This document shows positions 1,771 through 29,175 of a DNA stretch of 35,432 bases, one piece after another. This DNA comes from a virus (Duplodnaviria > Heunggongvirae > Uroviricota > Caudoviricetes). Each line of letters opens with the position of its first letter. The first letter of the stretch is position 1. Position numbers and translations under genes: made by a program. The stretch spans positions 1 through 35,432 of the IMG/VR virus record IMGVR_UViG_2737471826_000010, one strand, 5' to 3'. Under the pieces are notes generated by a model. That model was not told the DNA's origin and ran no database searches. It saw nothing but the letters and a program-made list of their open reading frames with translations.

Positions 1771-2355
1771 TTATTGTTTGTTTTTTTCGTTCTGGTTGAT
1801 GACAAATTCAATGTAACTTTCGATCTTTGCTTTCTCGGTTTCGGGTAACAATGCGTAGCGCGAGCGATCATAGTTGATGGTCGCAGGGTCATGCGGATGA
1901 ATCAGTAGTTCATATCCGTGACGCCCGAATGCAGATGCAACATTCTCCAGGGTGGAAATGGAAACGCTGACCTCATTGTTTAACAGGCGGCTTATTGTCA
2001 CCTGGGCGACGCCGGATGCGCGGTGAAGTTTTCCCTGAGTTGAAAGGTCGCGGCTTTCACTCATCCAGCGTTCCAGGTTGTGAGCCGCCAGCTGACCTAT
2101 ATCACTCGGGCCGACAGGCTGAAAACCCTCCTGAGAAAGCGAGCGATCAATATCAAGCCAGTTACGGGGTTTATTGGCGGCAGCTTCAATTTTTCGTGCA
2201 ACCTGGTCGCCGATAACCTTCTTGCCAAGAGCCCAGCGGTTTACCAGATTTGCCTGAGTTCCAAGTTTTTCTGCCATCCGCGTCTGAACACCATTGAATT
2301 CACGGTCGATCAAGTCGTTGAGATTTTGCCTGCGGACGTCCTGGATACTTTTCAT
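1771..2355 (-). CDS. CI-like prophage repressor with two helix-turn-helix regions; no peptidase motif seen
   Basis: 194 aa; N-terminal HTH (QTRMAEKLGTQANLVNRWALGKKVIG) and second HTH-like segment (ASGVAQVTISRLLNNE); divergent from cro across the operator; no GDSM or Ser/Lys autocleavage signature by eye. Confidence 0.65.
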   Translation of the reverse strand: MKSIQDVRRQNLNDLIDREFNGVQTRMAEKLGTQANLVNRWALGKKVIGDQVARKIEAAANKPRNWLDIDRSLSQEGFQPVGPSDIGQLAAHNLERWMSESRDLSTQGKLHRASGVAQVTISRLLNNEVSVSISTLENVASAFGRHGYELLIHPHDPATINYDRSRYALLPETEKAKIESYIEFVINQNEKNKQ

Positions 2356-10038: not shown

Positions 10039-10115
10039 TGGCGTGGCATGCAGGATTCGAACCTGCGACCAACCGCTTAGAAGGCGGTTGCTCTGTCCAA
10101 CTGAGCTAATGCCAC
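10039..10115 (-). tRNA. tRNA-Arg (anticodon UCU), argU-like
   Basis: 77 nt; acceptor GTGGCAT/ATGCCAC, D-arm GCTC...GAGC, anticodon stem ACCGC/GCGGT with loop CTTCTAA, T-arm GCAGG-TTCGAAT-CCTGC, encoded CCA; close to E. coli argU with compensatory stem changes. Confidence 0.9.
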
Positions 10116-26530: not shown

Positions 26531-26944
26531 ATGAAGGAATTATTGCTGTTATCGGTATTTTTGATATCAGCTTGCTCGACATCCTATGATGTTTATGACG
26601 GTGTTGATAAGGCATATTGCGACAAAGTTAAAATGGATTTTTCTCTTGCCAAGACGGCGAAGGATAGTTGTATTGATCACTACGTCAAGACTTATACCAA
26701 GCCAGCCTCATCGGCATCTGATATTGCTGAAGGTGCTGTGTTTGAGTGTAACAAGGTGATATCCATCGCAGCGAGTTCTTCATACGATGCTGCTGTATGT
26801 GCAATGGCTGAAAGAAACGGCATGTCAGTGCAAAAAATTAATAGCATGATAAGCAGTAATGACGAAGCCAAAATAAGAACTGATATCAGCTCGGTGAAAA
26901 AAGATGCCATGAACAGAGTTGTAAAATATCAGTCATCTTTATAA
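26531..26944 (+). CDS. lipoprotein moron (possible superinfection exclusion)
   Basis: Signal peptide with lipobox LISAC; visibly AT-rich; followed by palindrome copy 3 and a terminator. Confidence 0.55.
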   Translation: MKELLLLSVFLISACSTSYDVYDGVDKAYCDKVKMDFSLAKTAKDSCIDHYVKTYTKPASSASDIAEGAVFECNKVISIAASSSYDAAVCAMAERNGMSVQKINSMISSNDEAKIRTDISSVKKDAMNRVVKYQSSL

Positions 26945-26947
26945 GTC

Positions 26948-26959
26948 GTGACATGTCAC
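26948..26959. repeat. 12-bp perfect palindrome GTGACATGTCAC (copy 3)
   Basis: Exact copy 3 bp after the lipoprotein stop and 1 bp before the terminator stem. Confidence 0.8.
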
Positions 26960-26960
26960 A

Positions 26961-26984
26961 GGCCGCTTTCGCGGCCTTGTTTTT
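26961..26984. terminator. terminator between convergent genes
   Basis: Stem GGCCGC/GCGGCC, loop TTTC, then TTGTTTTT on plus strand. Confidence 0.6.
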
Positions 26985-27144
26985 AACGAATGCCACCGCC
27001 GCCTGGGCGGGAATCCGCAGAACGCCCACCGCAGCGGGAGCCGTCAGCAGCAGTGTCGCTGTCGTGCTGACAACGACCAGCAAAGGCCTGAGTTGAAGCT
27101 ACCAGAGACAATAAAACGAACAGTGCAGCAAATGCTTTTTTCAT
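26983..27144 (-). CDS. small secreted peptide (53 aa)
   Basis: Internal ATG at 27144 gives MKKAFAALFVLLSLVASTQAFA signal peptide followed by a 31-aa Gly/Arg-rich mature region with two Cys; weak RBS. Confidence 0.3.
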   Translation of the reverse strand: MKKAFAALFVLLSLVASTQAFAGRCQHDSDTAADGSRCGGRSADSRPGGGGIR

Positions 27145-27225
27145 TGTGAAATTTCCATCTATAAGCCACCTCAATGTGGCGTCAATGAGTGTAGCACTGA
27201 CTTTTGTTTCGTCCATAAAAAACTA

Positions 27226-27738
27226 CTATGCAGGCTTTTTGGATTTGTACGAATAATCCCACGGATAAACATTTCTACTAAGTGGAGCTGTATTCGTTCG
27301 TTCATGAAATAATTTTGTGAAATTCAATACGGAATCCATCCAAACTTTTGCGTTAGCTTTGGTGTGTGCGGGCGGGTCCCAATAAGCTAGTAAGGCTGCA
27401 TCTCTTATTTCATTGACTGCATATATGAGATATGCGTTACTGGTTGGTTTTGGCCTGTAATTTCCTTGTTCATCAATCAATCCGTATGACCACTCATCCC
27501 AACACTGTTCAGTACATGAGTATGAATATGATGCATATTCACCAATATTGACATGAACCTTTCTGAGATGGAAACCTAATACTTCGTCTGGTCTTTCAAA
27601 AAGAGTATCTTTTCCCAGATCAGGATGATGACCATGACGCCAGTGTTGTTTAAAAGCATCTTTTAGCGAAATCAGAAAGTCATCAGTTTTAAACTCACCA
27701 GTAGGTATAACCTTCCCGCTATACTCACTCAAAAACAT
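27226..27738 (-). CDS. YafO-like toxin (putative ribosome-dependent mRNA interferase)
   Basis: 170 aa; PDLGKDTLFE, FHLRKVHVNIG and AYLIYAV...ALLAYWDPPAHTKA align with remembered E. coli YafO blocks (PDTFGRDALYD, ERVAHIHLANE, AHLVYCQ...WLLIAILKPEPHKLA); strong RBS AAGGAAGAGGAA; AT-rich. Confidence 0.45.
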   Translation of the reverse strand: MFLSEYSGKVIPTGEFKTDDFLISLKDAFKQHWRHGHHPDLGKDTLFERPDEVLGFHLRKVHVNIGEYASYSYSCTEQCWDEWSYGLIDEQGNYRPKPTSNAYLIYAVNEIRDAALLAYWDPPAHTKANAKVWMDSVLNFTKLFHERTNTAPLSRNVYPWDYSYKSKKPA

Positions 27739-28051
27739 CGAATTCCTCTTCCTTCATATGCGTTTCTAATGAGTTAAGCTGGCGGAAAGATATCTCTTTT
27801 GATTCTGCAGATGAGAGCTTTTTTATCCGCTTTATATTCTTTGTGATAGGAATAGACATTGTATGCACATCAGCGGATGCTCTTGGCTTTGTGCTGATAA
27901 AAATATGGCGCAATGCCGCATTTTCACTATTGAACGAGCCAATAGCTGATTTACGTGCTACAACCTTACCAGTAAAAATACGACTCTTGCTACGCTTTGC
28001 ATGAGTTCCGCTTCTTACCGGACCTCTCATCACGAATCCAAGTTTTGTCAT
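27725..28051 (-). CDS. putative antitoxin/partner of the YafO-like toxin
   Basis: 108 aa, basic N-terminus, acidic C-terminus EEEFDVFE; GGAGA RBS; overlaps the toxin gene by 14 nt; not obviously YafN/Phd-like. Confidence 0.4.
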   Translation of the reverse strand: MTKLGFVMRGPVRSGTHAKRSKSRIFTGKVVARKSAIGSFNSENAALRHIFISTKPRASADVHTMSIPITKNIKRIKKLSSAESKEISFRQLNSLETHMKEEEFDVFE

Positions 28052-28093
28052 CTTTAATCTCCGGTAAGTTACAGGTATAAAATAAAAACAGGT

Positions 28094-28108
28094 TTACCTT
28101 TAAGGTAA
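28094..28108. promoter_or_regulatory. operator site TTACC-TTTAA-GGTAA upstream of toxin-antitoxin-like operon
   Basis: Perfect palindrome copy 43 bp upstream of start codon at 28051. Confidence 0.55.
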
Positions 28109-28180
28109 TAGTACGCTATTCACCCCCAGTCTGCAATCTGTACAGAATTATTTAAAGGCACATCCCTGTGCCGCCGCCAG

Positions 28181-28891
28181 TCAGAAGAACCCTGCCTTGT
28201 CGTTGATGTATTCCGCGTGTGTCTGGATATCACGCAGGCATTTGCTCACACCGACGATGTAGCAGAACATGGTGGTCAGTTCCGCCGCCGCGCCCGATAC
28301 GTCGTGCCCGTCGTCCTGTAACTGGTTCAGCAGATTCATCAGCAGTGAGTTCTCCGTCAGGCCGAGAACACCAGACGGCGAGTGAATCAGGCTGCGGTAG
28401 CCGGGCTTCAGTGGGGCGCTGTAGGTTTTGTTCTCTATCTTCATTGCCTGCATCACTGCTGATGCTGTGGCGTTGGCTACCTGGTCGGCAACCATCTTTA
28501 TGCGTTCTTCCTGCGGGAGCGAGTTTTTAATGTAACTTCCGGTGCGGCGGATCTGAGGAAGTACTTCGCCTGTAACCCATTTGCGAAAGCGGTAGGGGAT
28601 AGTGCCTGGTGTCACCGCATCGCGGCAGCGGAGGATCAGTGTGTAGAGGCCTGACTCGGAGATGATGTTGATCTCTTTTACTCGGCTGTCAAAAATTGCA
28701 CGATGTTCATGCCCTATGTTGAACATAGACCTTTCATCATCATCCAGTTTTTCAAGTGCTTGGGTGACGTTTTGGATACGCAGCGCACTACAAACGTCTT
28801 GGGCTACAAACCATGGTTGGCCATCGATAATGATGGAACGGATAGGGTTAACAGATTCAAATTTGAAGATGGCAGTTTGAGCATTAGCCAT
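28181..28891 (-). CDS. antirepressor with Bro-N domain
   Basis: N-terminal WFVAQDVCSAL...SGLYTLILRCRD...FRKWVTGEVLPQIRRTG is a Bro-N-type signature; start set to ATG 28891 with GGAGA RBS; C-terminal domain paralogous to gene 29207..29464. Confidence 0.65.
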   Translation of the reverse strand: MANAQTAIFKFESVNPIRSIIIDGQPWFVAQDVCSALRIQNVTQALEKLDDDERSMFNIGHEHRAIFDSRVKEINIISESGLYTLILRCRDAVTPGTIPYRFRKWVTGEVLPQIRRTGSYIKNSLPQEERIKMVADQVANATASAVMQAMKIENKTYSAPLKPGYRSLIHSPSGVLGLTENSLLMNLLNQLQDDGHDVSGAAAELTTMFCYIVGVSKCLRDIQTHAEYINDKAGFF

Positions 28892-29048
28892 GGTGGTTAT
28901 CTCCACTTAGTGATTTTAATCACCACCGCAACGCCAATTACTGGTGGTGAACTGGACAAGGTTGGCGTACCGGCCTAAGTGGTACCGGCGTCCTTTCGGA
29001 CCCCTGCCCAGCCCACCATAATTCGGATATAGCTGTGCTTAACGCATA

Positions 29049-29071
29049 AAAAAACCACGTCTGGCGTGGTA
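29049..29071 (-). terminator. rho-independent terminator between the two antirepressor genes
   Basis: Stem ACCACG/CGTGGT, loop TCTGG, minus-strand T7 tract. Confidence 0.6.
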
Positions 29072-29160
29072 TGCGCCACTTAGTAACCCGGGACGCCAAT
29101 CCCGGCACTGGATTTTGCCAGTGCCTGATTACTATGGCACAAGAGGAGTGCGATGTAAAT

Positions 29161-29175
29161 TTACCGCAAAGGTAA
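29161..29175. promoter_or_regulatory. operator site TTACC-GCAAA-GGTAA
   Basis: Perfect palindrome copy between the small and large antirepressor genes. Confidence 0.55.

Follow-up and report, generated by a model that had tools for sequence, protein, structure and literature searches.

The stretch of DNA analysed here (35,432 nucleotides; IMG/VR record IMGVR_UViG_2737471826_000010; hereafter the window) is a prophage of E. coli and belongs to the epsilon15/phiV10 (Uetakevirus) type; its backbone matches phiV10, phiv142-3, TL-2011b and hundreds of E. coli chromosomes. It carries a two-gene cassette (27226–28108 including its upstream operator) that a preliminary description, made from the sequence alone, had taken for an AT-rich moron coding for a YafO-like toxin and an unrecognised upstream partner. 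The GC content (39.0% versus 48.7% for the window) and a cargo that differs or is missing in sister phages agree with the moron character. According to our analysis, the pair is reasonably probable to represent a type II toxin-antitoxin-like module, composed of a YafO-like toxin and a new antitoxin family. The genes and their translation signals are the following.

27226–27738, minus strand: open reading frame of 170 amino acids, assigned on family and model evidence as a putative long-form YafO-superfamily toxin with a RelE/HigB-like fold
27448–27528, minus strand: core of the insertion, toxin residues 71–97, peptide YSYSCTEQCWDEWSYGLIDEQGNYRPK, part of a subfamily-specific insertion (about residues 64–102) between two strands of the sheet
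27725–28051, minus strand: gene of the 108-amino-acid partner, putative antitoxin; N-terminal two thirds basic and predicted to be disordered, conserved C-terminal helix at residues 81–105
27743–27754, minus strand: ribosome-binding region of the toxin gene, AAGGAAGAGGAA, embedded in the last codons of the partner gene
28059–28062, minus strand: Shine-Dalgarno sequence GGAG of the partner gene, 7 nucleotides before its ATG, within the conserved leader ACCGGAGAT(T/G)A(A/G)AGATG

The two reading frames overlap by 14 nucleotides (ATGTTTTTGAGTGA, 27725–27738), in agreement with the preliminary description as to lengths, coordinates and overlap. The position of AAGGAAGAGGAA inside the 3' end of the partner gene suggests that translation of the toxin is coupled to that of the partner.

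The Pfam model YafO_toxin (PF13957) matches the 170-residue protein with 19.7 bits (E 9.5e-4), below the curated cutoff of 25 bits, over profile positions 7–100 of 101, and three relatives exceed the curated cutoff of this model, namely P0028 (43% identity, 28.1 bits), P0035 (26.5 bits) and TL-2011b gp44 (33% identity, 26.3 bits). The protein also strongly matches PHROG 1651 (function unknown), and an identical RefSeq entry, WP_000479990.1, bears the name 'type II toxin-antitoxin system YafO family toxin'. A profile search of 1.84 billion representative proteins retrieved only 53 clusters at E <= 1e-3, most of them with 160–200 amino acids. Among 41 near full-length family representatives, picked by length (133–200 amino acids), 26 match PF13957 (best E 6.8e-23). 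The profile of these 41 sequences (A3), which is wide and takes in a few short canonical-type members, aligns with E. coli K-12 YafO at an hhalign probability of 95.4% (E 1.8e-8; 108 columns; YafO residues 13–128), and family and YafO have the motifs F..[YH]W..G.HP..GKD, [RH].H[VL], PTS[DN]..L.Y and AH in common. Homology to the characterised E. coli YafO is thus indicated by wide-family profile comparison; pairwise BLAST of the 170-residue protein against YafO was not significant.

E. coli YafO was shown by experiment to cleave only translated messenger RNA (mRNA), and its membership of the RelE superfamily was predicted (PMC2814082); in 2011, a structure of YafO was not yet available and no structural homologue was known (PMC3337138). 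The AlphaFold model of the 170-residue protein, built on the 41-sequence alignment, has a predicted local distance difference test score (pLDDT) of 95.6 and a predicted template modelling score of 0.90, and it displays a RelE-superfamily fold of the RelE/HigB type. A sequence search of the PDB with the toxin family profile matched no chain. F29, G42, H62 and H125 are invariant across the family; candidates for catalysis or RNA binding are H62 and H125 along with K43/D44, R59, S100 and Y106, which are conserved. Between toxin homologues, nonsynonymous differences are low (pN 0.13–0.19) while synonymous ones are saturated (pS 0.76–0.90), which indicates strong purifying selection. Profile and model evidence therefore support placing the protein, as a divergent representative, in the YafO branch of the RelE superfamily, an assignment that needs sensitive methods.

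The preliminary description had also pointed to an insertion of about 25 residues. YSYSCTEQCWDEWSYGLIDEQGNYRPK does lie in a stretch absent from short YafO proteins of the canonical kind, but long-form proteins generally have this insertion, so it is a trait of the whole subfamily and not a peculiarity of the 170-residue protein. Compared with canonical proteins of 132–135 amino acids, the long form has 30–40 additional residues at about positions 64–102 and a C-terminal extension of about 25 residues.

The 108-residue partner has no match in Pfam (including PhdYeFM), NCBIfam, PADLOC or, searched with the family profile, the PDB; it is matched by PHROG 5933 (function unknown). NCBIfam and PADLOC scans likewise returned nothing for the 170-residue protein, save one meaningless lectin hit in the scans of the pair. 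A profile search for the partner found 24 database proteins from Enterobacterales, and those with a source name are called hypothetical. In the family alignment (A5), the N-terminus is near-invariant (MTKLGFVMRG, then KRRK), the middle is variable and the C-terminus is conserved as ISA..S.ELSFRMLNSLEDRMKEEEFDVFE. Both conserved ends have a ratio of nonsynonymous to synonymous substitution rates of 0.2–0.37, indicating selection at the protein level. The basic N-terminus and acidic C-terminus noted earlier are evident from isoelectric points (pI) of 12.0 for residues 1–35 and 4.5 for residues 79–108; overall the protein has a pI of 10.6 and a net charge of +11. Its AlphaFold model is poor (pLDDT 60.8), with residues 1–34 predicted to be disordered and followed by a weak three-stranded sheet; the sole confident element is the helix 81–105 (pLDDT 85–91). 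Profile hidden Markov model (HMM) searches and structure predictions, as proposed in the preliminary description for both proteins, point to the YafO family and a RelE fold for the toxin and leave the partner outside any family of known function, with one confident helix. We regard the partner as probably the antitoxin of the pair and PHROG 5933 as a candidate new antitoxin family.

The case for a functional pair draws on its conservation. In our survey of E. coli, Salmonella, Serratia, Klebsiella and viral contigs, every toxin homologue examined is preceded by a partner homologue of 100–120 amino acids, with the 14-nucleotide overlap unchanged. The pairs reside in epsilon15-like and P22-like prophages and beside integrase and AlpA genes. 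Two co-oriented and coupled genes with the candidate antitoxin upstream, preserved as a pair in five genera, correspond to the generic layout of type II systems. Identities between homologues amount to 32–50% for the partner versus 69–82% for the toxin, showing that the partner diverges much faster. A locus search of species-representative genomes with the narrow alignment gave three loci only, and a scan of viral contigs with P0038 gave none.

Upstream of more distant long-form YafO proteins, the partners are different and have 57–171 amino acids; for P0063, at 135 amino acids the shortest toxin examined among the distant ones, the upstream protein has at least 210 amino acids. YafO-like toxins also occupy three further phage moron positions (L046, L047 and L050; between tail genes, next to genes of a P22-type tailspike and an OspG kinase, and beside lysis genes), and the small upstream partner differs from one to the next. 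For toxins with a YafO domain, a survey of E. coli has found 13 partner clusters, with 8% known antitoxins (PMC10790755). Unknown partners of YafO-domain toxins are therefore a pattern already recognised in E. coli; what is new here is a candidate antitoxin family under a phage operator.

The last 32 residues of nine otherwise unrelated YafO-family partners have an ordered motif in common, with an aromatic-acidic tail behind a helix of the pattern S.E....[ILMV][ST]..[FML]. Scored by leave-one-out against an HMM of the others, five partners of the nine did better than all 2000 composition-preserving shuffles; p was about 0.04 for the 108-residue partner and about 0.055 for YafN. The motif may correspond to a portable peptide that binds the toxin and can be fitted with exchangeable N-terminal parts, a reading that is marginal for the 108-residue partner taken alone. 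As to the earlier claim that the partner is unlike YafN/Phd antitoxins, Pfam found no similarity and BLAST against YafN gave no alignment, but the C-terminal tail weakly resembles those of YafN and other YafO partners: hhalign aligned partner and YafN with E 0.13 over the C-terminal tails only, and Smith-Waterman shuffles gave p 0.11–0.14 for the whole sequences and 0.03–0.07 for the C-terminal 32 residues only. The stand-alone claim that the partner ends in a YafN tail was rejected (partner-family HMM against YafN: −1.0 bits, p about 0.4), so that support for a tail shared by YafO partners comes only from the nine-partner leave-one-out test.

Upstream of the partner gene lie the predicted elements of transcription control.

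28094–28108, no strand assigned: perfect 7+1+7 palindrome TTACCTTTAAGGTAA (TTACCTT-T-AAGGTAA), predicted to cover the cassette promoter from about −7 to +8
28108–28113, minus strand: putative −10 hexamer TACTAT, read from the sequence; the hexamer ends on the base with which the palindrome begins
28131–28136, minus strand: putative −35 hexamer TTGCAG, read from the sequence as part of TTGCAG-17 nt-TACTAT

The preliminary description had noted the perfect TTACC-N5-GGTAA site before the operon and considered it a phage operator, and its distribution speaks for both. With at most one mismatch, the site occurs 13 times in the window (10 exact copies) versus 0.49 times expected from shuffled sequences, and none of 100 shuffles reached 13. 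The 15-bp sites are found at positions 1637, 1699, 2411, 2459, 2796, 4742, 4804, 7275, 7293, 10438, 28094, 29161 and 29541. The pairs 1637/1699 and 2411/2459 flank the gene of a 194-residue double-HTH_3 repressor (1771–2355, minus strand), as expected of left and right operators; the remaining sites lie behind terminators or before operons, including those at the terminase gene, the tailspike gene and the antirepressor region. Over-representation at promoters and on both sides of the repressor gene is what a phage operator should display. PhiV10, whose repressor is 100% identical, has the same site set (14 sites) and no partner gene. The palindrome occupies the same place in all cassette loci and also precedes the unrelated cargo of phiv142-3 and TL-2011b. 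Because it is found before unrelated cargo and in a phage without the partner, a phage repressor site is much more likely than an operator of the antitoxin, and the data support TTACC-N5-GGTAA as a predicted phage-wide operator of the repressor type belonging to the backbone. An MqsA-type operator (ACCT-N3-AGGT) was considered and rejected, as the bases conserved across sites are TTACC/GGTAA and not ACCT/AGGT. In the literature, we found no description of a TTACC-N5-GGTAA operator, nor anything specific on this gene pair.

Divergent loci have TTGCxx or TTGAGC −35 boxes at equal distance, and one of them (L029) has TTGCAA-17-TATATT in the same register. A consensus promoter scanner did not call the cassette promoter, since TTGCAG matches the −35 consensus at three of six positions only, and the promoter thus stays a prediction. 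A protein bound at 28094–28108 would cover the transcription start, predicted at about 28101.

A second over-represented motif of the window, TAT-N-TGGTT, occurs nine times versus 0.83 expected (1662, 4790, 10496 and 29587, all plus strand, and five more sites). It lies 11–45 nucleotides downstream of several palindromes and is absent near that of the cassette; the motif might serve as a promoter or in regulation. Directly upstream of the BRO-N antirepressor gene (28181–28906), and downstream of the palindrome at 29161, we detected a C4 antisense RNA (28940–29023, minus strand; Rfam, 66 bits) and an isrK Hfq-binding RNA (29048–29124, minus strand; 67.7 bits), which amounts to an immI arrangement of the P1 type in an epsilon15-like podovirus.

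On both sides, the cassette is bordered by elements of the phage backbone.

26960–26977, no strand assigned: GC-rich hairpin terminator common to converging transcription units, annotated as terminator in phiV10
26983–27216, minus strand: small GC-rich (56%) gene of a signal-peptide protein, with 77 amino acids if translated from the first ATG and 53 if from the one at 27144
28157–28172, minus strand: hairpin GGCACAGGGATGTGCC after the BRO-N antirepressor gene, conserved in sister phages

The comparison with sister phages reveals where cargo has been exchanged. In phiV10, which has the same backbone, the BRO-N antirepressor gene runs directly into the terminator without the cassette. The slot is filled by two unrelated small genes in phiv142-3, and by a different YafO-like gene with an unrelated upstream gene of 59 codons in TL-2011b; BLAST and hhalign found no significant similarity between the 59-residue product and the 108-residue partner. 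From the stop codon of the BRO gene via the hairpin and the promoter-like stretch to the palindrome, the upstream regions of the window, phiv142-3 and TL-2011b are identical in alignment, and their divergence starts a few bases past the palindrome. At the other edge, homology with the phages carrying other cargo picks up about 4 nucleotides past the toxin stop codon, at about 27222. Other E. coli prophages contain the identical cassette behind a different upstream flank, with the joint again at the palindrome, and the full cassette is present in 69 of 5426 complete E. coli genomes (about 1.3%). Judged from these alignments, the insert is a true moron with sharp edges, and the locus offers a clean natural example of a cargo swap directly behind a phage operator. 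TTACC-N5-GGTAA sites also mark the points at which cargo is swapped between sister phages.

The small gene at 26983–27216 begins 9 nucleotides after the toxin stop codon, matches PHROG 3117 and 14503 ('membrane associated protein') and is annotated in RefSeq and in TL-2011b. It accompanies every type of cargo (TL-2011b, phiv142-3), is absent from phiV10, and is a backbone gene, probably read on the cassette transcript. The hairpin at 28157–28172 could act as a weak terminator between the BRO-N antirepressor gene and the cassette promoter. An Rfam scan detected no RNA antitoxin in the cassette, and a repeat search of 26900–28300 found short repeats at chance level only. Further away, the open reading frame at 26531–26944 (plus strand; 137 amino acids; signal peptide and lipobox LISAC; PHROG 8691, function unknown) takes the place of the small membrane protein p21 of phiV10, directly after the gene of the 824-residue virion protein, and may encode a superinfection-exclusion lipoprotein, itself a moron. 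A phage transfer RNA gene (10042–10115, minus strand; Rfam tRNA, 73 bits) lies between an open reading frame resembling Sf6 gene 66 and the portal region.

We propose the following scenario. The cassette (about 27223–28090) would be a type II toxin-antitoxin-like moron gained horizontally. If it acts as E. coli YafO does, the 170-residue toxin would cut mRNA while ribosomes are translating it. The partner would bind and block the toxin through its C-terminal amphipathic helix and the acidic-aromatic tail (about residues 80–108), its basic, disordered N-terminal two thirds being a fast-evolving and replaceable appendage, and the 14-nucleotide overlap would couple translation of the toxin to that of the partner. 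Transcription would proceed from the backbone promoter TTGCAG-17-TACTAT with its start site under the TTACC-N5-GGTAA operator; with the operator in this position, expression is probably set by the double-HTH prophage repressor and not by autoregulation through the antitoxin. A role in defence or prophage stabilisation is plausible, by which the module might contribute to abortive infection or prophage maintenance.

Several observations speak against this proposal. The Pfam score of the 170-residue protein falls below the curated cutoff of 25 bits, the narrow close-family profile (A2) gave no significant match to YafO, Foldseek searches of the toxin model against PDB and BFVD returned nothing significant, and neither protein matches a defence-system model of PADLOC-DB v2 (E <= 1). 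For the partner, no DNA-binding domain was recognised by Pfam, NCBIfam, the PDB profile search or the AlphaFold model, and its similarity to YafN, taken by itself, does not reach significance. The conservation of its C-terminus is partly forced by the embedded ribosome-binding site and start codon of the toxin gene. Moreover, the charges are the reverse of those in most RelE-type pairs, the partner having a pI of 10.6 and the slightly acidic toxin one of 6.4. Natural variants point in the same direction: three independent lineages (L040/L041 from Klebsiella, L043, and L044/L045) have a damaged partner gene next to an intact toxin gene that keeps all 71 residues invariant in the close family. 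The Klebsiella frameshift, found in at least ten contigs, leaves an open reading frame of 31 amino acids that is exactly the C-terminal helix and still overlaps the toxin start; of the other two lineages, one has a nonsense codon just before the helix and one a second, independent frameshift. An intact toxin beside a broken partner would not be tolerated by a simple constitutive toxin-antitoxin pair, and the generic expectation that no intact toxin is kept without a functional antitoxin fails in these three cases. Four explanations are possible: the C-terminal peptide suffices for neutralisation, translation of the toxin depends on coupling, the prophage repressor keeps the promoter shut, or the protein lacks toxicity.

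The last of these would mean that the pair is no toxin-antitoxin system at all, the YafO-like protein being non-toxic or recruited to another task and the basic partner being co-transcribed with it but otherwise independent, as a protein that binds nucleic acids or functions in regulation. The three disrupted partners without a compensating change in the toxin, the atypical charge pattern, the score below the Pfam cutoff and the insertion and C-terminal extension of unknown role would fit such a view. We nevertheless deem it decidedly unlikely, considering that the RelE-type core with its invariant His, Lys and Arg residues is strictly kept under strong purifying selection, that the two genes were never found apart and their 14-nucleotide coupling never varies, that the C-terminal motif recurs among YafO-family partners and that the main Klebsiella variant retains a reading frame for exactly the helix. 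If instead the promoter is normally shut, the viability of variants with intact toxin and disrupted partner would be expected, and this leads to an unlikely alternative: a lytic-phase module gated by the repressor, silent in the lysogen and switched on after induction or infection, in which a nuclease tempered by its partner reshapes host translation without any role in addiction or abortive infection. The palindrome covering the predicted −10 element and transcription start would suit this idea, as would its further copies, which accompany the immunity region and precede the antirepressor operon as well as early and late operons. On the other hand, a ribosome-dependent mRNA nuclease would strike phage mRNAs too, AT-rich morons at such a position are usually expressed from the prophage, the layout of the pair is typically that of toxin-antitoxin genes, and binding of the repressor to the palindrome, on which no literature was found, is a prediction.

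Least credible to us is a classical autoregulated module, in which the basic N-terminal part of the partner would bind TTACC-N5-GGTAA and repress its own operon. That part has the near-invariant sequence MTKLGFVMRG...KRRK and the very high pI mentioned above, and in all loci the spacing between the palindrome and the partner gene downstream of it is constant, though the flanks and central five bases of the palindrome vary. However, a DNA-binding antitoxin with a palindromic operator of its own was not found here: the N-terminus is predicted to be disordered and has no known DNA-binding fold, phiV10 has its 14 sites without a partner gene, and the same palindrome with the same upstream flank stands before the two unrelated genes of phiv142-3 and the different 59-residue partner of TL-2011b. 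We thus retain the type II toxin-antitoxin-like module as the favoured explanation. A bolder version of it, which we find doubtful at present, has the module wired to the master repressor of the prophage: the antitoxin would have dispensed with a DNA-binding domain and kept a short, portable YafO-neutralising C-terminal peptide common to many YafO partners including YafN, the operator would serve both as switch and as joint for cargo recombination, and the toxin would be freed upon collapse of the repressor or host shutoff by a superinfecting phage, so that the module would serve exclusion or suicide under repressor control.

YafO belongs to the E. coli toxins that are understood least, and the locus provides a confident model of the RelE/HigB type for its long-form subfamily, as well as a candidate antitoxin family, PHROG 5933, with a candidate minimal neutralising peptide of about 30 residues. 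If gating by the repressor holds true, the immunity circuitry of a prophage would be linked to the control of a toxin; otherwise, the cassette would be one more toxin-antitoxin moron.

Among known systems, the dispersed operators of P1 C1 resemble the arrangement found here in that one palindrome is repeated about 13 times at promoters genome-wide, including the immunity region. As in the C4-controlled immI antirepressor operon of P1, the antirepressor gene here has C4 and isrK-like RNAs in front of it, with one site upstream of them. In contrast to P1, the present system belongs to a podovirus of the epsilon15/phiV10 type with a different, symmetric predicted operator and a double-HTH_3 repressor. 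HigB2 of Vibrio cholerae, HigB1 of M. tuberculosis, RelE, YafQ and YoeB are ribosome-dependent mRNases of the RelE/ParE superfamily; their sequence identity to the 170-residue toxin is 6–17% only, and they lack its insertion and additional C-terminal helices. In HigBA, moreover, the gene order is the reverse of that in the cassette.

With E. coli K-12 YafN-YafO, the cassette shares a homologous toxin core with the motifs G-[KR]-D, H-x-H, T-[SN]-[DN]..L.Y and [AP]-H, the position of the antitoxin gene upstream of the toxin gene, and an acidic-aromatic partner tail (EEEFDVFE versus DDDFNDFKE). The two differ in that the cassette toxin, with its insertion and C-terminal extension, has 170 amino acids compared with 132 in YafO, and in that the 108-residue partner is not an upstream antitoxin of the YafN type: it has no Phd/YefM domain, and no overall similarity to YafN was detected. 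While yafNO sits in the dinB operon and is SOS-regulated according to the title of a reference listed in PMC3337138, the cassette sits behind a phage operator. Closest in setting is gp44/gp45 of TL-2011b, which occupies the same slot, flanked by the BRO-N antirepressor gene and the gene of the small signal-peptide protein, behind the same promoter flank and TTACC-N5-GGTAA site, with a toxin of the same long-form architecture (33% identity, E 1e-27). Its partner gp45, with 59 amino acids half the size and unrelated in sequence, has the loose C-terminal motif alone in common with the partner described here.

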